NCBI GenBank assembly: GCA_902521655.1 | Contig: CABYSM010000003.1 | Coordinates: 15,297 to 79,296, forward strand | Reading direction: 5' to 3' | Source of the DNA: an uncultured Pelagibacteraceae bacterium | GTDB lineage: Bacteria; Pseudomonadota; Alphaproteobacteria; Pelagibacterales; AG-422-B15 | Length of the DNA: 64,000 nucleotides | Notes under the pieces: generated by a model | The model's database searches: none | What the model was told of the DNA's origin: nothing | Seen by the model: only the letters and a program-made list of their open reading frames with translations | Position numbers and translations under genes: made by a program | In this document: piece after piece, positions 5,352-28,923 of the stretch | Numbering within the stretch: position 1 is the first letter of the stretch | Layout of the letters: every line of letters starts with the position of its first letter

Positions 5352-6719
5352 ATGGCATATCTAAATAGAACTACTAAACAATGGCAGGAGATTGATACCA
5401 AACATCACCTCCATCCTTTTACTGACTATAAGTCTCTTGCTGAAGAAGGTAGTATCATTGTAACAAAAGCAGACGGCGTTCATCTGACCACATCTGATGA
5501 TAAGCAGCTATTGGATGCAATGTCTGGGCTTTGGTGTGTTAATGTGGGCTATGGCCGAAAAAATCTTGCTGAAGTTGCCTACAAGCAAATGCAAGAGCTT
5601 CCATATTATAATTCTTTTTTTAAAACTGCTACGCCTCCATCAATCGAGCTAGCAAGAGAATTAGCAGAGTTAAGTCCCCATGATCTAAATCATGCATTCT
5701 TTTCATCAAGCGGTTCAGAAGCCAACGACACAGTTGTGAGAATGGTGAGGAGATATTGGGATCTTAAAGGTAAGCCAAACAAGAAAACTTTTATAAGTAG
5801 AGAGTTTGCATACCATGGCAGTACAATGACAGGTATGAGCCTTGGTGGGATGACTGCAATGCATTCACAAGGTGATATGATGCCAGGTTTTGAGCATGTT
5901 TTACCACCATATTGGTACAAATACGGAAACGAAATGTCCCAAGATGATTTTGGAATTTTTGCAGCAAACAAAATTGAAGAGAAGATTAATGAAATAGGCG
6001 CTGATAATGTGGCGGCATTTATTGGTGAGCCAATCCAAGGTGCAGGTGGTGTAATCATTCCTCCTGATTCATATTGGCCTAGGGTCCAAGAAATCTGCAA
6101 TCAGTATGATATCCTTCTTGTAGTTGATGAGGTTATCTGTGGCTTTGGAAGAACAGGAAACTGGTTTGGATCTGATACATATAATATCAAGCCCGATATA
6201 ATCACAATGGCTAAGGGTATAACATCAGGCTACATACCGCTATCAGGCATCATGATTGGTGATCGCGTTAGTGATACAATTATTAATGAAGGTGGTGAGT
6301 TTTATCATGGTTATACGTATTCAGGTCATCCAGTAGCTTGTGCAGTAAGTCTTGAGAATTTAAAAGTTATAAAAGAAGAAAATCTTATCGAGCAGTCAAG
6401 TCAGGTGTCTGTCTATTTAGAGCAGCAAATGCGTGAGATTGAAAAGCACCCGCTAGTTGGAGAAGTCAGAATGAAAAGTTTTATAGGAGCTGTAGAATTG
6501 GTTAAAGATAAAGAGAAGATGGAAATGTTTGAGGACACGGGTGTTGTTGGAACAATTTGCAGAGATTACTGTATTGAAAATGGTTTAGTGATGAGAGCTG
6601 TGAGGGATGGAATGATTTTTTGCCCACCGCTAATTTTTAATAATTCCCATGTAGACGAATTATGTGAAAAGCTTAAAAAATCTTTAGATCAAACACATAA
6701 TCATATTTCTAAATCGTAA
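5352..6719 (+). CDS. Class-III PLP aminotransferase (omega-amine:pyruvate / SpuC-like)
   Basis: 455 aa with AYHGSTMTGMSLGG, DEVICGFGRTGNWFG and PLP-lysine context ITMAKGITSGY. Confidence 0.8.
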   Translation: MAYLNRTTKQWQEIDTKHHLHPFTDYKSLAEEGSIIVTKADGVHLTTSDDKQLLDAMSGLWCVNVGYGRKNLAEVAYKQMQELPYYNSFFKTATPPSIELARELAELSPHDLNHAFFSSSGSEANDTVVRMVRRYWDLKGKPNKKTFISREFAYHGSTMTGMSLGGMTAMHSQGDMMPGFEHVLPPYWYKYGNEMSQDDFGIFAANKIEEKINEIGADNVAAFIGEPIQGAGGVIIPPDSYWPRVQEICNQYDILLVVDEVICGFGRTGNWFGSDTYNIKPDIITMAKGITSGYIPLSGIMIGDRVSDTIINEGGEFYHGYTYSGHPVACAVSLENLKVIKEENLIEQSSQVSVYLEQQMREIEKHPLVGEVRMKSFIGAVELVKDKEKMEMFEDTGVVGTICRDYCIENGLVMRAVRDGMIFCPPLIFNNSHVDELCEKLKKSLDQTHNHISKS

Positions 6720-7147
6720 CTGTAGAACTCATTATCTCTAATGTATCCAAGTGACTCGTAAAGTGTTTGACCAGGCGTGTTTGATTTATTTGTGGAAAGT
6801 TCGATTGAGCCAAATTTATTTTCAGTAGCATAATTTTTAGCAGCATCCATTAACAACTTAGCAATACCTTTTCTTCTATACTCTTCTCTTACAAATAAGT
6901 CATATAGAACAATTTTTTTTCTTACATTCACCGAGTCAAAAGTAGGGTATAATTGGGTGAAACCTGCACAAGTACCCTCTTCTTCATGAAAAAAGATTAT
7001 TGATTCATCATTCTCAAGTCTTTGCTTGATATATTTTTGTGCAATTTCAAGATTTGATTCTTGATTATAGAAGATTCTATACAAATTAAAAACTTCTCCA
7101 ATGATATCGGAGTTTTCTTTAGTAGCTCTTTTAATACTTTCTTTCAT
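6701..7147 (-). CDS. GNAT-family N-acetyltransferase
   Basis: The ORF track gives 6701..7285, but the first 46 codons overlap the upstream MFS gene. The internal ATG at 7147 (MKESIKRATKE...) lies 2 nt after the MFS stop. The acetyl-CoA site is RRKGIAKLLM. Confidence 0.7.
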   Translation of the reverse strand: MKESIKRATKENSDIIGEVFNLYRIFYNQESNLEIAQKYIKQRLENDESIIFFHEEEGTCAGFTQLYPTFDSVNVRKKIVLYDLFVREEYRRKGIAKLLMDAAKNYATENKFGSIELSTNKSNTPGQTLYESLGYIRDNEFYSYDLEI

Positions 7148-7149
7148 TT

Positions 7150-8307
7150 CTAGTTTCTTATAGTTCGATAAATTGAAATCATTAAGAAAATAAAAGTAAA
7201 AAATACAATTGTATATATAAAACCAATAGGACCAAAAATATCCATAACTCTTCCCCCAATCAAAGGACCAATTAATGAACCGCACTCAAAAACCATCACC
7301 AATATTGCCGTTGCGCCCGCAACCTGTGAAGCAGTATATCTTTCTCCCAACATTGTAAGTGATATCGAGAATATTCCACTTGCTGCTCCTCCCCAAATAA
7401 AACAGCTCAATGCCACTAAATAGAAGTTTCCAAGAAAAACACCTATAATTATTGGACAAATAAAAGTACAGAAGACAGCAATATTCATAAGTAGTCTCTT
7501 ATTCATCCTATCAAGTAAAATACCAATTAGCGGCTGGCATATGACACCGCCAACTAACGTAATAGTGACAAACTGAAGAGCAATGTCTTGTGAAAACTGA
7601 TTCTTAATCATAAAGATTGGAAAAAATGACACGAACATAACATCGTCTAATCCACAGAGAATTGCAGCTCCAAAAATAGTTGGGGCAGCTATTATCGTCG
7701 CTAAAATCGGAAGAGACTTTTTCTCAGGCAATTCTTGATCTGCTATATTGAATGTTATGAGAGGAATAATTGCTATAAATGACATTGCTGCAATTACAAT
7801 AAATGGAAGCCATCCCTCAATCCCCGTTAAAGATATAACAAGAGGACCAATTGCAAAGCCAATAATAAATACGGTATTGTATATTGTTACAATTTTCCCC
7901 CTATTTGTATCATCTGCCATTGATAACATCCATGTATCAAAGGCATTCCATGCAAGTGCTCCTGCAAAACCGATAAGAAATCGTATAATAAACCATGCAG
8001 TTAAACTCTCAAATACGGGAAAGGTGAAATATAAAATAATTGTGACAATCTGAGCAATCACAATGGACCTAGACAATCCAATTGTGTGAATGATAATAGG
8101 AGTAATTCTAACAAATAAAATTACCGCCAACGGTTGGGCTACAACATTCAAACCGATCTGTGTATTGCTATAGCCTCTTGATTCAAGTATTAGAGATAAT
8201 AAGGGAATAAGTGTTCCTAGTTTTATGCCAATAATGAGTGCACATAAAAATAAAACAATATAAGTTTTATAGTTACTTCCAAGTATTGATTGAAAAGATG
8301 AAATCAC
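7150..8307 (-). CDS. MFS transporter
   Basis: 385 aa with about 12 TM segments. It overlaps the upstream TetR gene by 4 nt. Confidence 0.75.
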   Translation of the reverse strand: MISSFQSILGSNYKTYIVLFLCALIIGIKLGTLIPLLSLILESRGYSNTQIGLNVVAQPLAVILFVRITPIIIHTIGLSRSIVIAQIVTIILYFTFPVFESLTAWFIIRFLIGFAGALAWNAFDTWMLSMADDTNRGKIVTIYNTVFIIGFAIGPLVISLTGIEGWLPFIVIAAMSFIAIIPLITFNIADQELPEKKSLPILATIIAAPTIFGAAILCGLDDVMFVSFFPIFMIKNQFSQDIALQFVTITLVGGVICQPLIGILLDRMNKRLLMNIAVFCTFICPIIIGVFLGNFYLVALSCFIWGGAASGIFSISLTMLGERYTASQVAGATAILVMVFECGSLIGPLIGGRVMDIFGPIGFIYTIVFFTFIFLMISIYRTIRN

Positions 8308-8948
8308 ACAAACCGTTTTTCATCTGTATAAATATTTTTAAAGTATTTTTTTACTAGTCCTTTACAAAATACGTGTGAGTACATTTTAGGATCAAATAAA
8401 ATTCTTTGCCATAACCCATCTACCATTGAGAGATAAGTCTCACTTATTTCTTTTGGGGTAAGAAAAGATTGATTATTTAAAATATTTACTTCTTTAATTA
8501 ACTTTTCCATCTGAGATGAATATATTTCATCTTGTTTTTGACAGATTGATAAATAAGAAGGACGGAACTTTACTTCACTATAGAAAGATACCCAGACTGC
8601 AATTTTATTTCTATTTGCAATTTTACTACTGAAATCATTTTCGATTATCTTAATCACTCTACCAACAGGATCTAAGTTATTATCTTCAAATATTCGTTGC
8701 CAAGAATTTTTATATTCGTCTGACAGAAATTTTAGTGAACTTAGTAAAAGATTTTCTTTAGATTTAAATCTAAAATTTGCATAGCCTTGTGATACCATTG
8801 CTTTTTTAGCAACTTGTGCAATCGTAGTATCTCCAAGACCTCTTTTAGCTATAGTTTCAATTGTTGCATCAATCAGTTTTTGATGATTGATTGAGAATTC
8901 TTGATCTTCAAGTTGATGATCACTAATTTTTTTGGGACTTATATTCAT
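8304..8948 (-). CDS. TetR-family transcriptional regulator
   Basis: N-terminal HTH is IETIAKRGLGDTTIAQVAKKAMVSQGYANFRFKSKENLL. I prefer the ATG at 8948 (MNISPKK) over the GTG at 8963 used by the ORF track. It is the first gene of a TetR-MFS-GNAT string and is divergent from the 9044 operon. Confidence 0.8.
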   Translation of the reverse strand: MNISPKKISDHQLEDQEFSINHQKLIDATIETIAKRGLGDTTIAQVAKKAMVSQGYANFRFKSKENLLLSSLKFLSDEYKNSWQRIFEDNNLDPVGRVIKIIENDFSSKIANRNKIAVWVSFYSEVKFRPSYLSICQKQDEIYSSQMEKLIKEVNILNNQSFLTPKEISETYLSMVDGLWQRILFDPKMYSHVFCKGLVKKYFKNIYTDEKRFV

Positions 8949-8990
8949 AAAAGAACCATACACAAAGTTTAATCATATGGGTAGTTTTGT

Positions 8991-9008
8991 ATTGAATAAT
9001 CATTCAAT
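8991..9008. promoter_or_regulatory. Candidate operator: 7-N4-7 inverted repeat ATTGAAT-aatc-ATTCAAT
   Basis: Perfect 7-bp arms read directly from the sequence. It sits in the 95-nt divergent gap between the TetR gene and the 9044 operon. The half-site is shared with the palindrome at 13422-13439. Confidence 0.55.
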
Positions 9009-9043
9009 ATGAGTATCATAATAATTCAATATTCGTACATTTT

Positions 9044-10672
9044 ATGCCAAAAAATACTCATGATGTAATTGTTGTTGGAGCGGGCCATAACGGGCTTACT
9101 GCAGCTAGTTATATGGCTAAAGCAGGATTAGATGTCGTTGTCCTAGAAAAAAATGATTGGATTGGCGGCGCGGCAGTAAGTCGAGAGCTTTACCCAGGAT
9201 GGAAATATTCAAATTGTTCTTATGTATGTAGTTTATTAAGGCCAGAGATCATGCGGGACTTAGAGCTTTATAAGTATGGGCTACAAATTATCCCATACGA
9301 AGGCAGTGCCACGATGATGAAAAATGGAGATTATTACACTCATTACCATGATCATGACATGACTATAAATTCTATAAGGCGTCATTCTCATAAAGACGCA
9401 GAAGCATATGAAAGATACAGCCGAGACGTTCTTAGACAATGTAAAATTATTAAGCCTCTACTAAAAATGACACCGCCTGACTTAACATCATTTAAACCAA
9501 AAGATTTATTTGGTGCCCTCGAGTTTGCGAAACATTTTGCTGCAAAAGATGAACTAGATGGTCTTGGAGAAAAAGAGATTTATGAAACTATTCGTTTCTA
9601 TACGATGAGTATTAGAGATTACTTAGAGGAATATTTTGAAAGTGAAATAACTAAAGCCCATCTTGCTGGCAGTGCAATCATAGGCACAGCTTTGGGTCCA
9701 TGTTCGCCAGGATCAGCTTATGTGTTGCTGCACCATTATATGGGTGAAGTTGATGGATCAGTTGGCTCATGGGGCTATGCAAGAGGTGGCATGGGATCTA
9801 TTACTCAAGCAATGATGGGTTGTTTAAAAGACCATGGTGGTGAAGTAAAGCCTAGCAGCGAAGTAACTAACGTTATTACAAAAAATGGAAAAGCAATTGG
9901 GGTCGCAACACAAAATGGTGATGAATATTACGCAAAGAAAATTGTATCCAATCTTGATGTCAAACGAACATTTCTAAAGATTACTGAGGAGAAGGATCTT
10001 CCTGATGATTTTGTGAGAAGCGTGAAAAATTTCAAGATAAGGGGGTCATCTGGTAAATTAAATATTGCATTAGATGCATTACCAGATTTTCCATGCATAC
10101 CTGAAGGCGATCCAGGGGGTGGTGGAGACATGCACTTCACAGAAACAATTGAAGAGATGGAAGGCGCTTATGACGATTGGAAAAGGGGAGAATGGTCACG
10201 AAATCCTTATGTAGATATGTGTATTCCATCCAAAAGTGATCCGACAATGGCTGAGCCTGGTAAGCATTATATGTCTGTATTTATTCAGTATGTACCATTC
10301 AACCTCGCAAATGGCGGATGGAATGAAGAGAGAAAGCAAGAGTTTGGAAGACATATTGTTGATTGTATTTCAGAGTTTTCACCTAACTTTAAAGACTTAA
10401 TTAATCATTATGAGGTTCGTACACCACTAGAATTGGAAAACGAGGTTGGTCTGACAGAGGGTAATATTTTTCAAGGAGAGTTGACCATGGACCAATTAAT
10501 GTTCAATAGGCCAGTCCCAGGATATGCACAGTATCGGACTCCATTAAAAAATATGTATATATGCAGTTCTTCAACACATCCAGGCGGAGGTGTAATGGGT
10601 GCCCCAGGAGCTAACGCTGCTCGTGAAGTTTTACTAGACATGAACGTTCCACAAAAAGGAAATTATTATTAA
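9044..10672 (+). CDS. NAD(P)/FAD-dependent oxidoreductase, amine-oxidase / CrtI (phytoene desaturase) fold
   Basis: 542 aa with N-terminal dinucleotide fold VIVVGAGHNGLTAASYMAKAGLDVVVLEK and C-terminal HPGGGVMGAPG. Confidence 0.7.
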   Translation: MPKNTHDVIVVGAGHNGLTAASYMAKAGLDVVVLEKNDWIGGAAVSRELYPGWKYSNCSYVCSLLRPEIMRDLELYKYGLQIIPYEGSATMMKNGDYYTHYHDHDMTINSIRRHSHKDAEAYERYSRDVLRQCKIIKPLLKMTPPDLTSFKPKDLFGALEFAKHFAAKDELDGLGEKEIYETIRFYTMSIRDYLEEYFESEITKAHLAGSAIIGTALGPCSPGSAYVLLHHYMGEVDGSVGSWGYARGGMGSITQAMMGCLKDHGGEVKPSSEVTNVITKNGKAIGVATQNGDEYYAKKIVSNLDVKRTFLKITEEKDLPDDFVRSVKNFKIRGSSGKLNIALDALPDFPCIPEGDPGGGGDMHFTETIEEMEGAYDDWKRGEWSRNPYVDMCIPSKSDPTMAEPGKHYMSVFIQYVPFNLANGGWNEERKQEFGRHIVDCISEFSPNFKDLINHYEVRTPLELENEVGLTEGNIFQGELTMDQLMFNRPVPGYAQYRTPLKNMYICSSSTHPGGGVMGAPGANAAREVLLDMNVPQKGNYY

Positions 10673-12189
10673 TGTCTGACAATTCGAATTTTGATGCCAT
10701 CATAATCGGTGGAGGTCATAATGGATTGGTATGCGCAAATATCCTTGCTAGAAAAAATAAAAGAGTACTAATTTGTGAAGCACGAAAAGAGTGTGGTGGC
10801 ATGGTCAACAATGAAATCACAAACTATGTTCCTCCAGTAACAACAGCTGTTTCAAGTTCGTTAGGAGGTATGCAAGTAAATTATTTGCCAAAGACTACAA
10901 TCGCTTTATCTGAAACTGGGCAGCACATCCGACTAGTTGGCAATCAACACATTGACCATAAATCTATCTCAACATTTTCATCGCACGATGCTGACCGTTT
11001 TAATGATTTTCATGAGAAAATGTCAAAATTCTCAAAAACTCTGGGCTCCTTCATGATGGCATCACCTCCACGTATTATGAACAACAGCTTTTCTGACTAT
11101 TTTAAGCTCTTCAAGCTTGGATTAAATGTTAGGCTACTAGGAAAGAAAAATTTCAATGAGTTTGCCAGGATGATTGGTCTAAATATAGCTGATGAACTCG
11201 AAGATAATTTTGAAAATACATTACTTCAAGGGTTGATTGCACATGACTCAGTCATAGGGTCAAATTTAGGCCCACGTTCACCAGGCTCTCTCATAAACTT
11301 ATTATATAGAATGGCTATCCACAATAATTCATTATTTGGTGGCATATTTCAGATAGAGGGAGGCAACGATCAATTCACTAAACATCTAATTGAAAAATGT
11401 AAAAGCAATAATGTAGAAATAAAGACCTCAGCGTCTGTTAAAAATTGTATTGTTGAAGATGACTGTGCTGTAGGCGTTGAACTAATTAATGGTGAAAAGG
11501 TGTATGCTAAGAAAATTATTTCTAATGTAGATCCACGTTCAACATACTTTTCATTACTTGGCTCTCAAAACCTTGATACTGACGTAAAAAGGAAAATTAA
11601 GCATCATCGCTCCAAAGGACGAGTTGCTAAACTTATTTTAGATTTAAACAAGTTACCTAGTTTTAACAATTGTGATGATATTGATCTTGATAGCAGAATG
11701 GTTGTTGCTCCATCTATTGATTACATTGAAGAAACATTTAACCCTAGTAAGTTTGACAAGCTTTCACTAGAGCCAACACTTGAAATTTGTGTAAAGAAAG
11801 ACTCTGATCAAAATCCAAAATTAGACATTCAAGTTCAATATGCACCATATAAAACTGATCAAGGGTGGGAAAATGTAAAAGAAAATTATATTGAATCTAT
11901 AATCAAAATCATTAGTAAATATGCTCCCAATATTAATGAATGCATCGAGCATAAGAAATTAATAACCCCTGACGATATTGAATTAGAATATAATGTATCA
12001 GGTGGACACTGGCATCACGGCGAGATCCAAATTGATCAGCTTTTTATGATGCGCCCAATTCCAGGAGCCTCACAGTATAAAACGCATTTGGATGGTCTTT
12101 TTATGTGTGGCGCAGGAACACATCCAGGTGGTGGCTTAACCGGTATTTCAGGCAAAAATGCAGCCAAAGCAGTTTTGGACGATTTTTAA
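10672..12189 (+). CDS. NAD(P)/FAD-dependent oxidoreductase, amine-oxidase / CrtI fold (paralogue of 9044)
   Basis: 505 aa with IIIGGGHNGLVCANILA and C-terminal HPGGGLTGISG. Its start overlaps the upstream stop (TAATG at 10670-10674). Confidence 0.7.
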   Translation: MSDNSNFDAIIIGGGHNGLVCANILARKNKRVLICEARKECGGMVNNEITNYVPPVTTAVSSSLGGMQVNYLPKTTIALSETGQHIRLVGNQHIDHKSISTFSSHDADRFNDFHEKMSKFSKTLGSFMMASPPRIMNNSFSDYFKLFKLGLNVRLLGKKNFNEFARMIGLNIADELEDNFENTLLQGLIAHDSVIGSNLGPRSPGSLINLLYRMAIHNNSLFGGIFQIEGGNDQFTKHLIEKCKSNNVEIKTSASVKNCIVEDDCAVGVELINGEKVYAKKIISNVDPRSTYFSLLGSQNLDTDVKRKIKHHRSKGRVAKLILDLNKLPSFNNCDDIDLDSRMVVAPSIDYIEETFNPSKFDKLSLEPTLEICVKKDSDQNPKLDIQVQYAPYKTDQGWENVKENYIESIIKIISKYAPNINECIEHKKLITPDDIELEYNVSGGHWHHGEIQIDQLFMMRPIPGASQYKTHLDGLFMCGAGTHPGGGLTGISGKNAAKAVLDDF

Positions 12190-13389
12190 ATGACACAAGA
12201 TCTTAGATATTCAGCCTTAAAGAAGACACCTTTTCATTCCAGAACCAGTATGGCTTCTCGAACTAACAAATATTATAATTGGAATGGCTACACTGTACCC
12301 ACTGAATATTCAACAACCGAGCTAGAATATACAGCAGCAAGAAATGGTACATCAGTTATGGATCTTACCCCTATGGGCAAATATGAAATTACGGGTGATC
12401 ATGCGCATAGATTTGTTGATTACTTAGTTACCCGAGACCTATCAGAAATGAAGGACAATACAGTAGCTTACATCATCTGGTGCAATGAAGATGGAAAAGT
12501 GATTGACGATGGTACTATTTTTAAATTTTCTTCAACAAAATTTATGCTGTGCTGTGCTGTTAAAATATATAACTGGCTTAACGACTCAGCTTATGGCTTT
12601 GATGTTTCAATAAGCGATGTAACAGACACTATTGCAGCATTAGCAATTCAAGGGCCAACATCGTGCTCGACTTTAAAAAAATTTGGAGCAACTGATCTTG
12701 AAAAACTAAAACCTTTTGAAATGAGAGAATATAAAATTGATGGCTTTAATATTTTAATTTCACGCACAGGATTCACTGGTGATTTGGGTTACGAATTGTG
12801 GACTGATCCAAAAAATGCAGAAACTACATGGGACAATATTGAGATTGCTGGCAAGGAGCTAAAATTAAGACCTTTTGGAATGCATGCTCTCGAAATGACA
12901 AGAATTGAAGCTGGGTTTATTCAAACCAATACAGACTTTATGGCCGCAGAAGACTCATTAAGACCAACCAGAATGAGGTCACCTTATGAAATTGGAATGG
13001 GATGGCTCGTGCACTTAAACAAGAACTCATACTTCGTTGGAAAGAAAGCTCTTAAAAAAGAAAAAGAAGAAAACACTACTGAGAGATGTTTAGTAGGTTT
13101 GGATATAGATGGAGATAAGCCAGCACATGGTTCTGTGATCTATAACAGCAAAAAAGAAGACATTGGCATTGTAACTGCAGCTCTATGGTCTCCTATTATG
13201 AAAAAAAACATTGCACTGGCTTCACTCAAGAGACCTTACGGAATAAAAATAAAAGAAAATATATTTGCAGAAATTTATCACCCTGAAGAACTTGAGTACC
13301 GTAAGATATGGGCAAGATGCAAGGTAGTGAAAAGGCAATTTTTTAACCCTGAAAGAAGAAATAAAGTTCCTGCAGATCTATATGAATAG
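12190..13389 (+). CDS. GcvT-family aminomethyltransferase-like (folate-binding T-protein fold)
   Basis: 399 aa with typical T-protein stretches: TPFHSRT, AARNGTSVMDLTPMGKYEITG, ALAIQGP, ISRTGFTGDLGYELW and LRPFGMHALEMTRIEAG. Its ATG follows the upstream TAA directly. Confidence 0.75.
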   Translation: MTQDLRYSALKKTPFHSRTSMASRTNKYYNWNGYTVPTEYSTTELEYTAARNGTSVMDLTPMGKYEITGDHAHRFVDYLVTRDLSEMKDNTVAYIIWCNEDGKVIDDGTIFKFSSTKFMLCCAVKIYNWLNDSAYGFDVSISDVTDTIAALAIQGPTSCSTLKKFGATDLEKLKPFEMREYKIDGFNILISRTGFTGDLGYELWTDPKNAETTWDNIEIAGKELKLRPFGMHALEMTRIEAGFIQTNTDFMAAEDSLRPTRMRSPYEIGMGWLVHLNKNSYFVGKKALKKEKEENTTERCLVGLDIDGDKPAHGSVIYNSKKEDIGIVTAALWSPIMKKNIALASLKRPYGIKIKENIFAEIYHPEELEYRKIWARCKVVKRQFFNPERRNKVPADLYE

Positions 13390-13413
13390 CCAAAAAATAA
13401 GGATTATATAGTA

Positions 13414-13451
13414 ATTCAATTATTGAACAGCTGTTCAATTTAAGCTATAAT
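13414..13451 (+). promoter_or_regulatory. Candidate operator plus promoter: ATTCAAT-t-ATTGAACAGCTGTTCAAT overlapping TTGAAC-N17-TATAAT
   Basis: There is an 18-bp perfect palindrome at 13422-13439 and an extra half-site at 13414-13420. The -35-like TTGAAC is at 13423-13428 and the -10 TATAAT at 13446-13451. The ATG of the next gene is at 13457. Confidence 0.5.
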
Positions 13452-13456
13452 GATTC

Positions 13457-14860
13457 ATGCCTAAATCCACATCCCAGCCTCCTATAAAAGATTTAAAGAA
13501 TACCCTAGATGATCGAATTCTTCATCCATGGCAATACTTAGAATACAGAGGTGAAGATGATCGGACATTTATTGATAAGTCTGAGGGGATTTACCTTTAT
13601 GACAAAACAGGAAAAAAACTAATTGATGGACCTGGAGGCATGTGGAATGTCAATGTTGGTCATGGTGTTAAAGAAATTGCGGATGCAGTTTACAATCAAA
13701 TTACTAAAATGCCTTACGCAAGTCCGTTTACTGAATCAACAGAAATAGCTCACAATTATGCATCAAGACTTGTTCAATATGCACCTGGTGATTTAAAAAG
13801 GATTTTTTTTACTTCTGGTGGATCGTCTGCTGTGGACTCAGCATTACGATTTGTAATGTTCTATAATAATATTCTAGGCCGAAAAGAAAAAAAACAAATC
13901 ATATCAAGAAATGATGCTTACCACGGTAGCACATTTTTAGGAGCTTCTTGCTCAGGCAAAGAAAGAGATAAAAATAATTTTGATTTCGCAAGTAATATTG
14001 TTCACCATATTTCATCTCCTAATCCTTTTCGTAAACCTGATGATCTTACTGATGAAGAATTCTGTGATCTAAAGGTTCAAGAATTAGAAAACAAAATAAT
14101 TGAAATTGGCGCTGACAAGGTTGCTGCTTTTATAGCTGAGCCTATTTTAGCTTCAGGTGGTGTGATTGTCCCACCAAAAGGTTATCATAAGAAGACACAC
14201 GAAATTTGTAAGAGACATGATGTACTGTACATTTCAGACGAAATCGTTACTGGTTTTGGAAGACTTGGCCACATTTTTGCTTCAGAAAATTATTTTGATT
14301 TCACACCGGATATTATACTTCTCGCTAAGGGGATCACATCTGGATATGTGCCTTGCGGAGCTGTTGTTATATCAGAGCGATTGATGTCCAAATTAGATAA
14401 TAAAGAGAAAGTAATTTTTTCAAACGGTTTCACAGACTCAGGGCATCCTGTTAGCATGGCCGCCGCAACTGCAACTCTGGACTACATTGAAAAAACTCAC
14501 TTACTTGATCACGTAAAAGATGTTGGCCCTTATTTTCAAGCAAAATTGAGAGAGCTCACTGATTTACCAATTGTTGGTGAAGTTAGAGGTGAAGGTCTTA
14601 TGGCCGCAGTAGAATGTGTGGGTAATAAGGATAAAAAAGATCCACTGAATTTATCTTACGAGATTGGTTCTAGGATTAATGAGCATTGCCAGCAATTAGG
14701 TTTAATCGTACGACCATTATTTAGTACATGCGTCATGTCACCGTCATTAATTATCACGAAGGAACAAGTTGATGACCTTGTTTCTATTTTGCGTAAAGGC
14801 ATAGAGTTAGCAACAGATGATATCAAAAAAGAAGGTCTCTGGTCAGCAACTTCAAATTAA
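13457..14860 (+). CDS. Class-III PLP aminotransferase
   Basis: 467 aa with DAYHGSTFLGASCSG, DEIVTGFGRLGHIFAS and ILLAKGITSGYVPCG. Confidence 0.8.
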   Translation: MPKSTSQPPIKDLKNTLDDRILHPWQYLEYRGEDDRTFIDKSEGIYLYDKTGKKLIDGPGGMWNVNVGHGVKEIADAVYNQITKMPYASPFTESTEIAHNYASRLVQYAPGDLKRIFFTSGGSSAVDSALRFVMFYNNILGRKEKKQIISRNDAYHGSTFLGASCSGKERDKNNFDFASNIVHHISSPNPFRKPDDLTDEEFCDLKVQELENKIIEIGADKVAAFIAEPILASGGVIVPPKGYHKKTHEICKRHDVLYISDEIVTGFGRLGHIFASENYFDFTPDIILLAKGITSGYVPCGAVVISERLMSKLDNKEKVIFSNGFTDSGHPVSMAAATATLDYIEKTHLLDHVKDVGPYFQAKLRELTDLPIVGEVRGEGLMAAVECVGNKDKKDPLNLSYEIGSRINEHCQQLGLIVRPLFSTCVMSPSLIITKEQVDDLVSILRKGIELATDDIKKEGLWSATSN

Positions 14861-16098
14861 TGACCTTTTTTAATCAACTTAAAGAAAGATATGAAGAAGG
14901 AAAGACTCTTCCGCAAGAGTTTTATACTGACGAAGAAATATTTTCTGATGAAATGAAAAAAATTTATTTCAAGCAGTGGCTGATGGTTGATCATGTTAGC
15001 CGTATTCCAAATCCTGGAGATTATTTTTTATTTAATGCAGAAAAAGAGTCAATAATCCTAATACGTGGAAGGGATAGTCAAGTTAGAGCTTTTTACAACG
15101 TTTGTTCTCATCGTGGTTCAAGAATATGTTTGGAAGAAGAAGGAACAAAAAAACTGTTAGTTTGTCCATATCATGCTTGGAGTTTCTCCGCAGAAGGCGA
15201 GTTAAAGTCAGCACGCTACATGCCAGATGATTTTAAAATGGAAGATTGGGGTTTAAAGCCTTGTCATATGAATATCTATCAAGGCTTGATATTCATAAAT
15301 CTCTCAATGGATGAACCAATGGATTTCAATGAGTTTATTGCCCCATTGACTGAGCTTGTAAATTTTCATAATCCTGAAAAGGCAAAGATTGCTGCTAGAC
15401 GAAAATATCCTACGAAAGCTAATTTCAAACTTGTCCTAGAAAATTTCCAAGAATGCTATCACTGTGGTCCAGCACATCCAGAGCTATGCTCAGTACATGA
15501 AAAAGACTGGGTATACACAATGGGTGCCGGTGTTGGAACGGCCCCAGAAAAAGAAACACAAGAATATTTAAAAAAGATTCAACCATGGATTGAGGATTGC
15601 AAAACAAAAGGAATCCCCTCAAAAACATATTTAGAAACTGAAGAAGGATTAAGTAAGGGATTAAATCGATACGTAGACCGTACACCCATCGGTAATGGAA
15701 ATTTATCACAAACTAAAGATGGCAAACCAGCCTCTAAACTAATGGGTCAGTTTAAAGAATTTGATGGTGGTTTATCCCAAGTAAGTTTTAATCCTTTTAG
15801 CTGTTGTTACTTTACAAATGATTTTGGAGTTATGTTTATATTTAAACCATTATCAATTTTTCAGTCTGAAGTTGAATTGATTTGGTTAGTCAATGAGGAA
15901 GCTGAAGAAGGCAAAGATTTTAATGAAGAAAACCTTACTCACATATGGGACGTAACCACTGCACATGACACAACCATTATTGAAAATAATCAAAATGGTT
16001 TGTTGTCTCATTCATTTAGTCCTGGAGTACTCTCACAGAACGAGTCTGCCGTTACGTATTTTTATGATTGGTATTTTACCAATATGAGACTACCATGA
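14860..16098 (+). CDS. Rieske [2Fe-2S] non-haem-iron oxygenase, alpha-type subunit (GbcA/Stc2/CntA-like class)
   Basis: 412 aa. Rieske ligands are C82-S-H84 ... C102-P-Y-H105 (CSHRGSRIC...CPYHAWSF). The mononuclear-Fe motif is ENFQECYHCGPAH (H201-x4-H206). Its start overlaps the upstream stop (TAATG). Confidence 0.8.
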   Translation: MTFFNQLKERYEEGKTLPQEFYTDEEIFSDEMKKIYFKQWLMVDHVSRIPNPGDYFLFNAEKESIILIRGRDSQVRAFYNVCSHRGSRICLEEEGTKKLLVCPYHAWSFSAEGELKSARYMPDDFKMEDWGLKPCHMNIYQGLIFINLSMDEPMDFNEFIAPLTELVNFHNPEKAKIAARRKYPTKANFKLVLENFQECYHCGPAHPELCSVHEKDWVYTMGAGVGTAPEKETQEYLKKIQPWIEDCKTKGIPSKTYLETEEGLSKGLNRYVDRTPIGNGNLSQTKDGKPASKLMGQFKEFDGGLSQVSFNPFSCCYFTNDFGVMFIFKPLSIFQSEVELIWLVNEEAEEGKDFNEENLTHIWDVTTAHDTTIIENNQNGLLSHSFSPGVLSQNESAVTYFYDWYFTNMRLP

Positions 16099-16115
16099 TG
16101 TAGGACAAATTTCTT

Positions 16116-17471
16116 ATGAAACAGCTGTACAACAAGGATATTTACGACGTTAATAAACCAGTAGAAAGTTATTGGGAAGAGGTCAGCAGCATTGACCAAA
16201 ATAAGTATCCAGAATTAGTTGGAGATCAATCATGTGATGTATGTGTCATTGGAGGCGGTTTTACAGGCATTAGTACGGCTTATCATATTGCAAAAAATTA
16301 TGGTGGAGATGTAAGAGTGTTAGAATCTGGGCACTATGGTTTTGCAAGTAGTGCAAGGAATGCGGGTTTTTGCTGTCTACCAGCTACAAAGTTATCTACC
16401 ACACAATTAATAAAAAAGTTCGGTATGGAAGAGACTAAGAAATTTTTTTCATCTCAAATTGAAGGCGTTGATCTTCTTGCATCTATTATTTCAGAAAATA
16501 ATATTGATTGTGAAAAAGTAGGTGATGGCAACCTTGATGTAGCTCACCATCCAGGAAGCAGTGAAGAATTAAAAGAATGGGGAAATGAATTGAAAGAGTA
16601 TTTTGGTATTAATACAAAATGGATACCTAAAGAAGAATTTGATGAAGTTGGACATCAATCAACTGAACAATTTGGGGCAGTATTTACAGAGGCTGGATTT
16701 GCAATGAATCCCATGGCGTTTATGCGAGGCTTTGCATCAGCAACTGTAGATGCAGGTGCAAAATTACATAGTTTTTCAAGAGTAAAAAAATGGGAGAGAA
16801 ATGGGTCACATAAGCTAATAACAGATGGTGGATCAATTACTGCAAATAAAGTTGTAGTAGCAACAAATGGTTACACTGATGAGTCGCTCCATCCAAGTTT
16901 TGCTAATCGAATGATGCCAGTCCTATCAAATATTATTGTTACCAGAGAAATGAGTGATGATGAATTTAAGTTGCAAAACTACAAAACTTTAAATCCCATA
17001 TGTAATTCTAGAGAAATTTTATATTATTACAGAAGAATGCCTTCTAACAGAATGTTGTTTGGCACAAGAGGTGATACTTATGGTGATGATGCAAGTGCAC
17101 TAAAAATGAGAGAATTTATGACTCAAAAATTTAGAGGCGTTTTTCCTCATTGGAATAATATTGATATTGATCACTACTGGAGAGGTACAGTTGTTATGAC
17201 CAGAGATTTTGTACCTGCATTTGGCGCATTGGATGACGACAAGTCAGTCTTATTTTCATATGGCTATCAGGCAAATGGTAACAATACTACAGTTTATTGT
17301 GGAAAGAAGCTGGCTGAAATGATTTACGAGTCAAATAGTGGAGAAACGAATATATCAAAAGTCTATCAAGGACTCTCTCCAAAAATACCATTAGGTTTTT
17401 TAAGATTATGGTATTTAAGACTATATCTATGGTATTCAAACTTTACAGATAAAAGTAAAAAAGAAATATAA
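16116..17471 (+). CDS. FAD-dependent oxidoreductase, DAO family (PuuB-like gamma-glutamyl-amine oxidase type)
   Basis: 451 aa with the dinucleotide fold DVCVIGGGFTGISTAYHIAK. Length and layout fit PuuB/DadA-type flavoproteins. Confidence 0.65.
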   Translation: MKQLYNKDIYDVNKPVESYWEEVSSIDQNKYPELVGDQSCDVCVIGGGFTGISTAYHIAKNYGGDVRVLESGHYGFASSARNAGFCCLPATKLSTTQLIKKFGMEETKKFFSSQIEGVDLLASIISENNIDCEKVGDGNLDVAHHPGSSEELKEWGNELKEYFGINTKWIPKEEFDEVGHQSTEQFGAVFTEAGFAMNPMAFMRGFASATVDAGAKLHSFSRVKKWERNGSHKLITDGGSITANKVVVATNGYTDESLHPSFANRMMPVLSNIIVTREMSDDEFKLQNYKTLNPICNSREILYYYRRMPSNRMLFGTRGDTYGDDASALKMREFMTQKFRGVFPHWNNIDIDHYWRGTVVMTRDFVPAFGALDDDKSVLFSYGYQANGNNTTVYCGKKLAEMIYESNSGETNISKVYQGLSPKIPLGFLRLWYLRLYLWYSNFTDKSKKEI

Positions 17472-17507
17472 ATTGCATCTATTATTTATATAAATTAAAA
17501 TTTTCTA

Positions 17508-18392
17508 ATGTTACAAGTTTGGAAGTCTTTTTATGCAAGGAGTGATCCTGCAAAAGCTTATTCACTTCTTTCTCCTGCATTGATTCTAGTTACTTTAGCT
17601 ATGCTTATACCTTTAGGGCTAATGTTGAGTTTTAGCTTTTTCACTCAAGTTAGCTTTACTGAAATTGACTACTCTTTCACCATTCAAAGATATATTGATT
17701 TTTTTCAAAAGAACTTGCTTGTCTCTTTACTTATAAAATCAGTGAAGATTTCGTTTATCGTAACTTTCGTAACTCTCCTTACTGCATATCCTGTCTGTTA
17801 TTACATAGCTTTTTATGTAAAGAAAAATAAAATGTTATGGCTTGTTTTACTGACATTACCTTTCTGGACATCTTATCTTTTAAGGGTTTTTTCCTGGAAA
17901 ATTATACTTGGAACTAAGGGAGTTATTAATTCTTCTTTAATTAATGCAGGACTGCTTAGCGAACCTCTCACTTTTCTAATGTATTCTGAGACTGCAGTTA
18001 TCATAACGCTTACCCATGCATGGGCAGCATTTGCTTTATTACCTTTGTACGTATCATTGGATAAAATAGATTTTTCTCTAATTGAAGCCGCCAGAGACTT
18101 AGGATTGTCAAGATTAGAAACTTTTTGGAAAATTACACTTCCTTTATCTCTTCCTGGAATCATTGGTGCCATACTAATTATCTTTATTCCAACAGTAGGA
18201 GATTATGTTACTCCTGCTTTACTTGGAGGAACTGATGGGAGAATGCTATCAAATATGATCCAAGCTTACTTTGGAAAAGTAAACAATCTTCCTCTTGGTG
18301 CTGCGTCTGCAACCATTATGCTCATTACTGTTGCGATAGTGACAATGATCGTTTCATATACAACAAAAAAACTTACTCAAAGGATTTCTTAA
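17508..18392 (+). CDS. ABC transporter permease, PotB-like
   Basis: 294 aa with 6 TM segments and the EAA-loop region IEAARDLGLSRLETFWKITLP. Confidence 0.8.
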   Translation: MLQVWKSFYARSDPAKAYSLLSPALILVTLAMLIPLGLMLSFSFFTQVSFTEIDYSFTIQRYIDFFQKNLLVSLLIKSVKISFIVTFVTLLTAYPVCYYIAFYVKKNKMLWLVLLTLPFWTSYLLRVFSWKIILGTKGVINSSLINAGLLSEPLTFLMYSETAVIITLTHAWAAFALLPLYVSLDKIDFSLIEAARDLGLSRLETFWKITLPLSLPGIIGAILIIFIPTVGDYVTPALLGGTDGRMLSNMIQAYFGKVNNLPLGAASATIMLITVAIVTMIVSYTTKKLTQRIS

Positions 18393-19208
18393 GTGGAACA
18401 AAAGAACAATACATTGTTAATCTACACATTATTGTATTTTGCATTTTTATATATCCCTGTTTTATTCTTGCCAATATTTAGCTTTAATGATGCAAATTAT
18501 ATGTCATTTCCACTTTCAGGATTTACAACAGAGCATTATGAAGAAATGTGGGCAAAAACAAATTTACATAAAGCTCTTTGGGCTAGTATCAAAGTAGGTA
18601 TAGTTGCAAGTGTTGTCAGTACAACAATTGCACTTTTCGCAGCCAAAGCATTTGCACGTTATAAATTCAGAGGGCAAAATATTTCTTACGGGGCCATTAT
18701 GATTCCTTTTTTAATTCCAGAAATTATTTTAGCGGTTGCAATACTTGTTATTTGGTTAAGCCTTGGTTTTAAATTAGGACTTGTACCGGTAACTTTAGGA
18801 CATATTCTTTTTTGTACTCCATTTGCAATGCTTATTTTAATTGCTCGTATAGAAGGCTTTGATTTCTCACTAGAGGAAGCATCAAGAGACCTTGGGGAAA
18901 ATGCCTGGGGGACATTTTATCGAGTATCTCTTCCATTATATCTACCAGGTATAATTGCCTCACTTTTATTGAGTTTTATAATTTCATTTGATGAATTTGT
19001 TCTTGCGTTCTTCTTAACTGGAAGCGATGCAACATTGCCCATGTATATGTGGGCTCAAATGAGATTTATTCAGAAACTACCGCATGTGTTGGCTTTAGGT
19101 GCGGTTATAATTGTGTTTACTACTTTTATAGTTTTGTTAGCATTCTGGTTGAGAAACCTTGGTCAAGGAAAAGAGAAAGCTGAATTTGGAATAAAAATAC
19201 ATGAATAA
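18393..19208 (+). CDS. ABC transporter permease, PotC-like
   Basis: 271 aa with a GTG start directly after the upstream TAA. The EAA loop is EEASRDLGENAWGTFYRVSLP. Confidence 0.8.
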   Translation: MEQKNNTLLIYTLLYFAFLYIPVLFLPIFSFNDANYMSFPLSGFTTEHYEEMWAKTNLHKALWASIKVGIVASVVSTTIALFAAKAFARYKFRGQNISYGAIMIPFLIPEIILAVAILVIWLSLGFKLGLVPVTLGHILFCTPFAMLILIARIEGFDFSLEEASRDLGENAWGTFYRVSLPLYLPGIIASLLLSFIISFDEFVLAFFLTGSDATLPMYMWAQMRFIQKLPHVLALGAVIIVFTTFIVLLAFWLRNLGQGKEKAEFGIKIHE

Positions 19209-20283
19209 TTCTTTCATACAGATAAACGGAATTTCAAAGCATTTTGGAAATGTTAAAGCGGTAGATGATGTCTCTTTTCAAATCAAAGAGGGAGAGTTTT
19301 TCTCTCTACTCGGCCCATCGGGTTGTGGTAAAACAACTTTACTGAGATTGCTTGCCGGCTTTGAGTACCCAACTAGTGGCAACCTATTACTTGATGGCAG
19401 TGATATTACAGCATTACCTCCTGATAAAAGACCTACAAATATGGTTTTTCAGAATTATGCAATTTTCCCACATATCAATGTTGAAAAAAATGTTCAGTTT
19501 GGTTTGAGAAAACTTGGCTTAACAAACGATGAAATTATCAAAAGAGTTAAGGATGTTTTGTCGTTGGTTAAATTAGAAGGTTATGAGGAACGCTATAGCA
19601 GCCAACTATCCGGGGGTCAAAGACAAAGAGTGGCATTAGCGAGAGCTTTAGTAAGGCAGCCTAAAGTATTATTGCTGGATGAGCCACTTGGAGCATTAGA
19701 TAAAAAGTTACGTGATGAAATGCAACTCGAACTAAGAACTCTTCAAAAAGAGATTGGAATAACTTTTGTATTCGTTACACATGATCAGCAAGAAGCCATC
19801 AGTATGTCTGATCGAGTTGCGGTGATGAGTGAAGGCAAAATTCAGCAGATGTCATCTCCAAATGAGTTATATAAAAACCCTCAAAATATTTTCGTGAGTG
19901 ACTTTATTGGTGAAACTAATTTTTTAAAAGCTAATACAGGGTCAAAGGATGGAGAATATATTAATGTTAACATTGAAGATCTTGGTTCGTTCAAAATAAA
20001 GAATAATCTCAATATAAGTGAAAATGCCTCAGAAGTTATTTGCAGTGTTCGTCCAGAGACTATGATGATAGACACAGAAAAATCAGACTGGGATATTTGC
20101 TTAGAAGGTAAAATTAAGCAAACATCATATTTGGGTGAAATGACAAAATTTTATGTTGAAACAAAAGAAATAGAAAAAATTATAACTGTATCATCACAAT
20201 ATTTTGATAATCAGTCTTTCCAAGATAGCAAATGCTTTATCAGCATAAACTTAGCTGATATTTCCTTACTAAATAAAAAATAG
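19201..20283 (+). CDS. ABC transporter ATP-binding protein, PotA-like
   Basis: 360 aa with Walker A GPSGCGKTT, signature LSGGQRQRVALARAL and Walker B LLLDEPLGALD, plus a C-terminal regulatory/TOBE-like extension. Confidence 0.85.
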   Translation: MNNSFIQINGISKHFGNVKAVDDVSFQIKEGEFFSLLGPSGCGKTTLLRLLAGFEYPTSGNLLLDGSDITALPPDKRPTNMVFQNYAIFPHINVEKNVQFGLRKLGLTNDEIIKRVKDVLSLVKLEGYEERYSSQLSGGQRQRVALARALVRQPKVLLLDEPLGALDKKLRDEMQLELRTLQKEIGITFVFVTHDQQEAISMSDRVAVMSEGKIQQMSSPNELYKNPQNIFVSDFIGETNFLKANTGSKDGEYINVNIEDLGSFKIKNNLNISENASEVICSVRPETMMIDTEKSDWDICLEGKIKQTSYLGEMTKFYVETKEIEKIITVSSQYFDNQSFQDSKCFISINLADISLLNKK

Positions 20284-20334: not shown

Positions 20335-21423
20335 TTAGCCGCCAGCTACCATTTCAGCCCACTGAGCTTCCATGTAGTCAGTCACTTCGTCAGACGGCAT
20401 CACAGAGAACATTCCATTATTTAAATGTTCGATAGGATTTGATGCAACTCCACGTTCAGCTAATTCGTCAGCTGTAAGTGTGCTAAATCCAGCTTTATTA
20501 CTGTGTCCATAACCCCACTCACTTAATAAGTAAGCAGATGTTTCAGCACTAGTAGCACCATTGATCATCGCGTATGCTTTATCAAGGTCTGCACCTTTAA
20601 CAATCGCAAGACCACATGCCCAAGTCATTGTGCCATTGGAAGGCTGCATCATTTTTGCACCTGCACTCCATGCTATTTCGTTCCATCCAAGAGCTACGTC
20701 TATTTCTTCGTTACCTAGCGCTTCGATCATTGAAGAAGTATCTCCAAAGAATGCACGAATTTGACCATTGTCTCTCATTTCACGAAACTTATCGATACCT
20801 TGATCAATTGCAGCTTTTGTTAATTGATCTTGCTCTCTTATGTCAATTCCAAGATGGTGCATCATTAAAAATAATGAGTCTGCAGCAGAGTCTAAAATAC
20901 CTACTTTACCTTTTACTCTTGGGTCTTCCATTAGAGCAAAGCTTTCATTTGAGGCGTCCATCCAATCAATCCTGTCTGCCATGTAAAACAATGTAGTATC
21001 TCCCCAGTCGACTGGCGCAAAATAATGCTTACCATCAACCATGCCACTTGGCAGGTCTCTAACTTCAGGGAACATGTCATTCCAGTTTTCAATTCTTGAT
21101 GGATCAAGCGGCTCTAATACGCCTGCTCTTACCCATCTTTTTATTTCACCTTGACATGGCCATGCTAAGTCAACTTCAAAGCCTGCTTTTAGTTTTTGCA
21201 ATCCTTCTTCAGCATCACCAAATATTGAGTATTCAGGGGAACCGTGCTCTTCAGCGTATGTTCCAAATAGACCATCATCATCGTAGCCACCCCACAGGAA
21301 TACAGATCCTGGCTCATCTGCAAAAGCTTTAGTTGTTGACGTTACACCAGCGATAAAAACAAACGATAGTGATACAATCAAAGCTTTTACAAAAGAATTT
21401 TTCATTTCTTTGTATTTTGGCAT
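20335..21423 (-). CDS. Periplasmic substrate-binding protein of a PotD/PotF-type ABC importer
   Basis: 362 aa with a signal peptide ending TKAFA|DEPGS. It is an acidic, Trp-rich mature protein, convergent with the potBCA-like genes. A GAGGAAG Shine-Dalgarno lies 7 nt before the ATG. Confidence 0.7.
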   Translation of the reverse strand: MPKYKEMKNSFVKALIVSLSFVFIAGVTSTTKAFADEPGSVFLWGGYDDDGLFGTYAEEHGSPEYSIFGDAEEGLQKLKAGFEVDLAWPCQGEIKRWVRAGVLEPLDPSRIENWNDMFPEVRDLPSGMVDGKHYFAPVDWGDTTLFYMADRIDWMDASNESFALMEDPRVKGKVGILDSAADSLFLMMHHLGIDIREQDQLTKAAIDQGIDKFREMRDNGQIRAFFGDTSSMIEALGNEEIDVALGWNEIAWSAGAKMMQPSNGTMTWACGLAIVKGADLDKAYAMINGATSAETSAYLLSEWGYGHSNKAGFSTLTADELAERGVASNPIEHLNNGMFSVMPSDEVTDYMEAQWAEMVAGG

Positions 21424-21458
21424 AATTAATCTTCCTCTTTTTTTTATTTATACCAAAA

Positions 21459-21486
21459 ATTGTACACCTATAAGGTCGTTGGTCAA
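21459..21486 (-). promoter_or_regulatory. Candidate sigma70-type promoter for the binding-protein gene (TTGACC-N16-TACAAT on minus strand)
   Basis: The reverse complement of 21481-21486 is TTGACC and of 21459-21464 is TACAAT. It lies in the 67-nt gap between the amidase stop and the SBP start. Confidence 0.45.
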
Positions 21487-21490
21487 TATA

Positions 21491-22987
21491 TTAAAGGGGA
21501 ATCAAGGGACGATTTTTGTTTGAATTAAGCCATGGATCTAACATTTCGTAGTTGTACCCACCCTGGAATACTAATTCATCGCTGTAAGATCGAGCAATAA
21601 TTTGGATTCCTGTTGGAATATTGCTAGAACTTAATCCTGAAGGGACTGATAGGACCGGTAATTTACCTAACATATTAAATGGATGTGACATGACCCAAGA
21701 AAAATCTGCACACTTCTGCTCTTTATTATTGATAATGATATTTTCATTAACAATATCAATATCAGCCTTAATTGAAGGTAAGGAGTTTGTAGGACATATA
21801 AATAAATCGTAACTGTCTAATATTGGTCCAATTTCTGAATACATTCGGCCTGTGATCTCTGAGCTTTCAATAACATCATATCCAACATAAGCCCCTATTT
21901 GATCATGATAGTACTTCTCATTATTTTGTATCGCTCTGATATGTAATTCAGGGACTTCAGCAAACATTTTTGCATAATCAGTTAATAGTTTTTTTTCATC
22001 GTTTGAAAATTTTGCTATTAGGCCATAAAATGAATTAGCGTAATGACTAAAGCAAACTGAATTTACTTCATCTCGATTCCAATTTAATTTTACTTCTGTA
22101 ATTGTTGCACCAAGAGCCTCAAATTTTTTTAGAGCCTCCAATGTATTTTTTTCAACTTCTTCATCCACCTCAAAAAATCCAAGATCAAGTGAATAAGCAA
22201 TTTTCCAGTTCTTAATATTCTCAAACTTATTAGGAATAATTTTTTTGGGTCTGAGTGAAGCAATATCATTTTTATTTGGACCACTCATAACATTTTGCAT
22301 AAGGGCACAATCACTAACTGTTCTCGCAAGGGGACCAACAACACAATACGGATCGTGATTAAAAGGATAACCCATTGGATTTCTTCCATAGGGAGGTTTG
22401 TAACCAACGACTCCGCAGGCCCCAGCAGGGATACGAATTGATCCACCTATATCACTACCAGTTGCAAGTGATGCACAACCCGACGCTAGTGCAGCAGCAC
22501 TCCCCCCACTTGAACCTCCCGGTGTCATATCTAAGTTCCAGGGATTTCTTGTGACGCCATTAACTTTGGAATGGCAGAATGATGTAAGTGAAAATTCTGG
22601 GTTAGTTGTGCGTGCATGAATTATTGCACCAGAGCTTACAAGGGACTCTACATCTACATCAGTTCCTTCTGCTATTACGTCTTTATAGATTAAGCTTCCA
22701 TTCTTATTAGGTTGTCCCTTTATATTAACTTCATCTTTAATTGCTAAAGGTAAACCTTCCAAAGGCAAAGTAGATTTATCTTCTGTATATTTTAATTCTG
22801 AATGTTTCGCTTCTTTCAATGCTTCTTCAAAGCGAAAAAAATTAAAAGCATTAATTTTTGGGTTTACATTTTCAATTCTTTTTATTGTCTCATTTAATAG
22901 CTCAACTGGAGACAAAGATTTATTTTTAAATTTTTCCAGGGCTTCAGAAGCTGATAAATAACAAATATCGAGGTCTAAACTACTCAT
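21491..22987 (-). CDS. Amidase-signature (AS) family amidase
   Basis: 498 aa with the AS motif GGSSGGSAAALASG, GSDIGGSIRIPA and the upstream catalytic Lys context LAIKDEV. Confidence 0.85.
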   Translation of the reverse strand: MSSLDLDICYLSASEALEKFKNKSLSPVELLNETIKRIENVNPKINAFNFFRFEEALKEAKHSELKYTEDKSTLPLEGLPLAIKDEVNIKGQPNKNGSLIYKDVIAEGTDVDVESLVSSGAIIHARTTNPEFSLTSFCHSKVNGVTRNPWNLDMTPGGSSGGSAAALASGCASLATGSDIGGSIRIPAGACGVVGYKPPYGRNPMGYPFNHDPYCVVGPLARTVSDCALMQNVMSGPNKNDIASLRPKKIIPNKFENIKNWKIAYSLDLGFFEVDEEVEKNTLEALKKFEALGATITEVKLNWNRDEVNSVCFSHYANSFYGLIAKFSNDEKKLLTDYAKMFAEVPELHIRAIQNNEKYYHDQIGAYVGYDVIESSEITGRMYSEIGPILDSYDLFICPTNSLPSIKADIDIVNENIIINNKEQKCADFSWVMSHPFNMLGKLPVLSVPSGLSSSNIPTGIQIIARSYSDELVFQGGYNYEMLDPWLNSNKNRPLIPL

Positions 22988-24134: not shown

Positions 24135-24148
24135 GTCAGAGATATAAA

Positions 24149-25519: not shown

Positions 25520-25521
25520 TC

Positions 25522-28920: not shown

Positions 28921-28923
28921 TAT

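Follow-up and report, generated by a model that had tools for sequence, protein, structure and literature searches.

Does the gap between a TetR-type regulator gene and the divergent gene string beside it hold the operator of that regulator, in a lineage for which little control of this kind has been described? According to published reports (PMC8437039, PMC11485210), many carbon-oxidation and transport functions of SAR11 are not under transcriptional control, and we found no description of a SAR11 TetR/BetI regulator or operator in the literature searched. The locus considered here lies in a 64-kb stretch of Pelagibacteraceae DNA, which we call the window and take at its full length (34% G+C, 96.5% coding, 3.5% non-coding).

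Two palindromes with one half-site and one spacing

A sequence-only reading of the window had put forward a palindrome in the 95-bp gap, here O1, as the site through which the regulator controls both itself and the neighbouring genes, and had pointed to a second copy, here O2, further along the plus strand. On re-reading the window we recovered the same coordinates and sequences for both (Table 1), and the same distances from O1 to the start codons on either side, 43 nt on the tetR side (ATG 8948) and 36 nt on the flavoprotein side (ATG 9044). O2 does recur with the same 7-N4-7 geometry, and the gap that contains it (13390–13456) is, as had been said, the sole other sizeable one in the plus-strand gene string, no other exceeding 40 bp. 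The arms of O1 grow to 8 bp through the pair T8990/A9009, giving a 20-bp site (8990–9009), and O2 is a perfect 18-bp palindrome with its spacer, AGCT, included. What had been missed is a further ATTCAAT next to O2, which forms with the O2 left arm a second, everted palindrome, TTCAAT-T-ATTGAA, the central half-site being common to both.

Table 1 Features of the locus, with positions in the window
Feature	Positions	Strand	Sequence or composition	Context or basis
Candidate operator O1	8991–9008		ATTGAAT-AATC-ATTCAAT (ATTGAATaatcATTCAAT)	95-bp tetR/flavoprotein divergent gap
Candidate operator O2	13422–13439		ATTGAAC-AGCT-GTTCAAT (ATTGAACagctGTTCAAT)	gcvT-like/aminotransferase gap
Extra half-site	13414–13420	+	ATTCAAT	One base upstream of O2
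Third copy	9024–9032	+	ATTCAATAT	Clade-specific
Flavoprotein-operon promoter-like element	8992–9019	+	TTGAAT (8992–8997), 16 nt, TATCAT (9014–9019)	
Internal promoter-like element	13423–13451	+	TTGAAC (13423–13428), 17 nt, TATAAT (13446–13451)	
Possible tetR promoter, weak	8978–9007	−	TTGAAT (9007–9002), 18 nt, TACCCA	
BetI-like TetR-family regulator, 214 aa	8304–8948	−	ATG 8948; stop 8304–8306	
MFS transporter and GNAT acetyltransferase	6701–8307	−	MFS 7150–8307; GNAT within 6701–7285	Pfam
Target gene string	9044–20283	+		Domain content; synteny conserved in related loci

A 7-N4-7 palindrome is not significant by itself, since the window holds 12 perfect inverted repeats of this form against 8.2 ± 2.9 expected in first-order Markov simulations; those with 8-N4-8 geometry number 3 against 2.3 expected. 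The remaining ten 7-N4-7 palindromes are A/T-rich and unrelated to O1 and O2. Single ATTCAAT half-sites are not enriched either, and are if anything fewer than expected (26 against 39.7), which bears out the caution that the sequence-only reading had attached to lone copies. The informative point is that one half-site recurs at one spacing. The pattern ATTGAAY-N4-RTTCAAT has exactly two matches in 64 kb, where 0.007 (analytic) to 0.015 (simulation) are expected, and both are intergenic, that is, within the small non-coding part of the window; the corresponding Poisson probability of two or more matches, about 2 × 10−5, is post hoc and, like the expectations, indicative only, because the pattern was derived from the two sites themselves. 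When the pattern is relaxed, matches with one or two mismatches appear at 11890, 11977, 44327 and 56548, all of them coding and at chance frequency.

Within the window we found no further members of a regulon, the gaps upstream of the PotD-like/amidase genes and of the Rieske-like gene at 23040 holding at most a lone half-site, and the 64 kb contain no canonical 7-0-7 betI box (a spacer-0 pair). Inside that Rieske-like gene (23040–24134), ATTGAATctcctgaATTCAAT at 23586–23606 has both half-sites inverted with a 7-nt spacer, and may be chance.

Conservation in related loci

For comparison we used 44 Pelagibacteraceae loci from different species-level genomes, 574 kb in total, in which gene order is conserved; all come from this one family, with regulator identity of at least 61%, and they and the regulator homologues derive from SAR11 single-cell or metagenome-assembled genomes. 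Phylogenetic footprinting and a count of matches in coding DNA had been named in advance as ways to check the operator reading, and both came out in its favour.

First, the motif is conserved in the orthologous gaps of every related locus that has the gap. The tetR/flavoprotein gap is contained in 42 loci, all of which carry O1; O2 is found in every locus with the gcvT/aminotransferase gap, and the 4-bp spacer is kept at both window sites and in all 44 loci. O2 is absent only from one clade (L040 and L042), where the two genes abut with no gap, so that loss of the site coincides with loss of the gap and hence of the internal promoter.

Second, the conservation is concentrated on the motif. In an alignment of 14 representatives, 16 of the 18 columns inside O1 are invariant, while the rest of the gap has 16 such columns in 103 (Fisher 2 × 10−9, a value that treats columns as independent and ignores shared ancestry), and identity to the window is 0.89–1.00 inside the motif against 0.50–0.74 outside it. 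O1 is kept even in the clade in which the regulator is 61–64% identical and the intergenic flanks are about 50–60% identical. At O2, in 15 representatives, the outer 6 bp of each arm are invariant, while arm position 7 (C/T, G/A) and the spacer vary, and the extra half-site is kept in 14 of the 15.

Third, the pattern has no coding matches in the 64-kb window or in the 574 kb of related loci, where only the two orthologous positions match. These data contradict a chance palindrome in AT-rich DNA. Perfect 7-N4-7 inverted repeats do arise here at about 8–12 per 64 kb, but one half-site recurring at one spacing, solely between genes and conserved in all related loci, makes this explanation extremely improbable.

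The third copy, ATTCAATAT, fared differently. It is present where the sequence-only reading had placed it, but it is not conserved outside the closest clade: it is limited to loci with regulator identity of at least 88%, and other clades have unrelated sequence at this place. We therefore left it out of the element, and it is probably not part of the operator.

Conservation of a palindrome might also reflect a hairpin in RNA, such as a terminator, attenuator or processing site, instead of a site in DNA. The computed fold of O1 with its flanks has −7.6 kcal/mol (z = −3.1), that of O2 has −5.5 kcal/mol (z = −1.35), and one locus, L038, carries a symmetric double change at arm position 7 that would preserve pairing. 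The stems are, however, weak and AU-rich, and the O2 hairpin is equalled by 21 of 200 shuffles. The L038 change is a single event and asymmetric C/A combinations at position 7 occur freely elsewhere, so that we read this position as degenerate, not covarying. There is no T-run, 8200–13600 contains 0 terminator-like sites, the palindromes have no Rfam match, and O1 would not be transcribed, because it overlaps the predicted −35. An RNA element is, on these grounds, very improbable.

Conservation across clades also extends to two more blocks on the tetR side of the gap, ATACACAAAG and G(A/G)TAG-TTTTGT (window 8958–8967 and 8980–8990). The second lies directly left of O1; the first lies between O1 and the tetR start, at a variable distance from the ATG. 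They may be the tetR −10, a 5′ UTR element or extended operator contacts. Separately, in one single-cell locus (L039, 3045–4504; QBZD01000027.1) residues 1–362 of the gcvT-like product run into residues 80–214 of the tetR product on the same strand. This junction contradicts the gene order of all other loci and is probably an amplification or assembly chimera.

The regulator and the promoter-like elements

The regulator matches the Pfam domains TetR_N (37.9 bits, cut-off 24, 1.5 × 10−9) and TetR_C_6 (34.6 bits, cut-off 27, 2.3 × 10−8). Among NCBIfam families its best match by far is BetI, at 95 bits against 39.5 for the next family, but both BetI models score under their cut-offs (TIGR03384, 95.1 bits against 201.3; NF001978, 94.4 against 118), so that it is not a BetI equivalog. 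It is 23% identical to Escherichia coli BetI overall, with 24 of the first 50 aligned residues identical in the HTH region. Its homologues are 214–215 aa long. In an alignment of 17 homologues, 58–95% identical, the recognition-helix region VSQGYANFRFKSK is invariant except for R60, which is kept in at least 90%; this invariant region would match the invariant operator arms. The window holds no TetR paralogue. The closest solved structures are distant TetR proteins, FadR, TtgR and RcdA (E ≥ 6 × 10−7), and none of them offers a DNA complex usable as a template. A profile search with the 17-homologue alignment for regulators outside Pelagibacteraceae returned the same 120 top proteins among the matches listed.

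The tetR stop overlaps the MFS start (GTGA, 8304–8307) and the GNAT acetyltransferase gene comes next, an order also seen in four further contigs (L047–L050); the three genes probably form a single transcription unit. An MFS exporter paired in this way with an acetyltransferase is reminiscent of amine or polyamine acetylation-efflux pairs. All regulator homologues listed are of single-cell, metagenome or MAG origin, with no UniRef or isolate-genome source among them, and for this reason the locus may be missing from the classical cultured strains HTCC1062 and HTCC7211.

With conservation, the absence of coding matches, a TetR-family neighbour and a betI half-site all in support of the original proposal, we consider it likely that O1 and O2, written jointly as ATTGAAY-N4-RTTCAAT, are bound as operators by the adjacent BetI-like TetR-family repressor. 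That the regulator would repress rather than activate, that it would control its own gene and that it would respond to a ligand are predictions.

Assignment to the adjacent gene is by proximity, and 64 kb of the genome are in view, so the sites might instead serve a different transcription factor, for instance a global regulator encoded elsewhere. Boxes of the FNR/FixK type have the form TTGA-N6-TCAA. Both sites here have the spacing TTGA-N8-TCAA, and we rejected an FNR/FixK-type box because the spacer is N8, not N6, at O1 and at O2. In the 574 kb of related DNA, moreover, the motif stands only beside the regulator and inside its target operon, and its half-site matches that of the closest characterised family of the regulator. 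We regard a different factor as decidedly improbable, and continue with the adjacent repressor.

At both sites the left arm coincides with a −35-like hexamer (TTGAAY), the right arm falls within the spacer and a conserved −10-like hexamer follows. The internal element, TTGAAC-17-TATAAT, is the best match in a consensus scan of 5.4 kb (10/12), and its −10 is invariant as TATAnT in the 15 representatives; on the O1 side, T9014, A9015, A9018 and T9019 are invariant across clades (TAnnAT). Promoter-like matches are not enriched in the region over shuffles (18 against 21.3), and the promoter assignment therefore stands on position and conservation.

The right arm of O1 is again TTGAAT when read on the minus strand, and 18 nt on there is TATCTT or TACCAT in most other clades. 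The corresponding TACCCA of the window is poor, only the TA at 8982–8983 is invariant in this −10 candidate, and in one clade the spacer would have to be 19 nt long. That the O1 right arm serves as the −35 of tetR is only a possibility; wherever exactly it lies, the tetR promoter has to be inside this 95-bp gap and no more than about 50 bp from O1.

Ahead of the aminotransferase gene (window 13446–13459), 5 nt separate the end of the conserved TATAAT, which another clade has as TATACT, from the ATG in all clades, and no Shine–Dalgarno-like sequence is visible before that ATG. Because the predicted start is at or beside the A of the ATG, the aminotransferase mRNA may be leaderless.

This overlap raises the alternative that the palindrome is a by-product of two crossing divergent promoters, with −35 hexamers (TTGAAT) as its arms and no repressor. 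Each arm of O1 reads TTGAAT on its own strand, with a −10-like hexamer 16 nt on for the plus strand and, in most clades, 18 nt on for the minus strand. Yet the −10 hexamers vary (TATCAT, TATGAT, TAAAAT, TATTAT, TAATAT) and the arms, which are far more conserved, are invariant together with the flanking A and T that lie outside the hexamers. The half-site is, besides, that of a footprinted BetI box. The strongest point against this alternative is O2, which keeps both arms with no divergent gene to serve and with the right one placed inside the spacer; since that arm is conserved like the left, we read a symmetric protein site and not promoter hexamers only. Crossing promoters by themselves are quite unlikely to account for the sites.

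For repression by the adjacent regulator, the arrangement suggests the following course. When no ligand is bound, one or two dimers of the repressor would occupy O1, where the left arm is the predicted −35 and the right arm fills the spacer, so that RNA polymerase would be excluded from the flavoprotein-operon promoter. As the right arm reads TTGAAT on the other strand, the same bound protein would probably also shut the tetR-MFS-GNAT promoter; tetR is thus probably autoregulated, to judge by geometry only. O2 would act in the same arrangement at the internal promoter ahead of the aminotransferase, Rieske, DAO and ABC genes. Binding of a small amine-type ligand to the BetI-type C-terminal domain would release the repressor and induce both transcription units.

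Relation to betI systems, target genes and surroundings

The E. coli betI-betT gap contains ATTGGAC.GTTCAAT, of which the half-site GTTCAAT/ATTGAAC is identical to the O2 arm, and DNase footprinting of BetI1 from Ruegeria pomeroyi gave a box close to it, ATTGACG*CGTCAAT, that likewise lies over a −35 box (PMC12442346). From these box sequences, the SAR11 half-site (ATTGAAC/ATTGAAT) is the canonical betI half-site, ATTGA(A/C)(C/G) (ATTGGAC/ATTGAAC in E. coli, ATTGACG in R. pomeroyi). The likeness extends to the placement of O1, between the regulator gene and a divergent target and over a predicted −35, and to the regulator, a TetR-family protein with a TetR_C_6 domain. Unlike the betI boxes, however, which are abutting 14-bp palindromes (7-0-7), the SAR11 sites have four extra central base pairs (7-4-7); since all betI boxes defined by experiment differ from this spacing by 4 bp, the shared half-site could be partly coincidental.

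A further parallel is the betI2-betTA divergon of R. pomeroyi DSS-3. As the source describes it, BetI2 uses two non-consensus palindromes with a common AAACTTGAAC, of which box 2 overlaps the −35 of both divergent promoters, and an effector-dependent switch between the boxes is shown (PMC12442346). As far as that description goes, the BetI2 boxes resemble the SAR11 sites in being non-consensus BetI-type palindromes, with TTGAAC in them as in O2, and the O2 region is similar in having two palindromes with a common half-site, TTCAAT-T-ATTGAAC-AGCT-GTTCAAT; the likeness is drawn from the description of AAACTTGAAC as the element common to the BetI2 boxes.

With TetR-tetO, QacR-IR1 and AcrR the locus shares a divergent regulator gene, a palindrome of 15–30 bp over predicted promoter elements and the expectation of release by ligand. 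O1 and O2 have no sequence relation to tetO or IR1, and in contrast to generic TetR modules there is a second operator, at a putative internal promoter of the target operon. As a type, such a switch is ordinary for TetR proteins, though its comparative support is unusually clean; its distinguishing features are the widened spacing of a canonical half-site, the possible double −35 in one palindrome and its occurrence in SAR11.

The targets also differ from a BetI regulon. Before O2 the string encodes two CrtI/amine-oxidase-like flavoproteins and then a GcvT-like aminomethyltransferase, whose 274-bit match is to the C-terminal, THF-binding part of TMAO demethylase. After O2 come a class-III aminotransferase, omega-type by its match, a GbcA-like Rieske oxygenase, a DAO-type flavoprotein and PotB/C/A-like ABC components. 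No betA, betB or betT was recognised among the 14 scanned genes of the two transcription units and their neighbours. With the regulator under the equivalog cut-offs and targets that are not bet genes, we file O1 and O2 as the putative TetR-family operator of a BetI-like, not a BetI, regulator; by analogy they would work like a betI box without belonging to a choline regulon.

The gene content suggests uptake and demethylation or deamination of a methylated amine, polyamine or osmolyte; the labels ‘catabolic operon’ and ‘amine ligands’ that the locus had been given are taken entirely from domain content. A SAR11 ‘PotD’ has been found to bind glycine betaine and DMSP, not polyamines (PMC11485210), and the ‘polyamine’ label of the ABC genes is for that reason not to be trusted. 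A relation of these Pot-like genes to the characterised osmolyte-binding SAR11_1336 is conceivable.

One may go further and picture the regulator as a descendant of BetI that reads the betI half-site at +4 bp, a change of about 137 degrees in twist that would call for another dimer geometry or for two dimers; one 18-bp palindrome as the −35s of two crossing divergent promoters, both shut by one repressor; a second copy at an internal, possibly leaderless promoter; and the whole as a substrate-inducible system by which SAR11 takes up and catabolises a methylated amine or osmolyte. As a combined picture this is tentative, and we would sooner doubt it than assume it. If true, such substrate-inducible catabolism would contrast with the little transcriptional regulation described for SAR11 (PMC8437039, PMC11485210). 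SAR11 genomes are streamlined, and a clean repressor–operator pair in one of them, with its two operators and predicted promoters, would give a concrete system for a heterologous host, in which one could ask what dissolved amine or osmolyte acts as inducer of uptake and catabolism genes in a SAR11 subclade. With betI-type half-sites set 7-4-7, the locus would also be a small natural experiment on how far TetR/BetI proteins tolerate changes in half-site spacing.

Beyond the target string, the opposite strand carries an amidase and a PotF-like binding protein (20335–22987). Downstream of the operon, 23040–27020 encodes a second GbcA-like Rieske-domain protein, a glutamine-synthetase-like protein (type III GS/gamma-glutamyl-amine synthetase-like) and further genes. 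The stretch from 4 to 27 kb looks like an island of amine-catabolism genes.

Two non-coding gaps, 28714–29117 (404 nt) and 36080–36431 (352 nt), are unusually long for DNA that is 96.5% coding. Neither has an Rfam match at E ≤ 0.1, and the first holds a 49-aa hydrophobic ORF (28771–28920). The only Rfam match of the window at the gathering threshold is a tRNA gene at 49226–49298 (RF00005, 58.9 bits).
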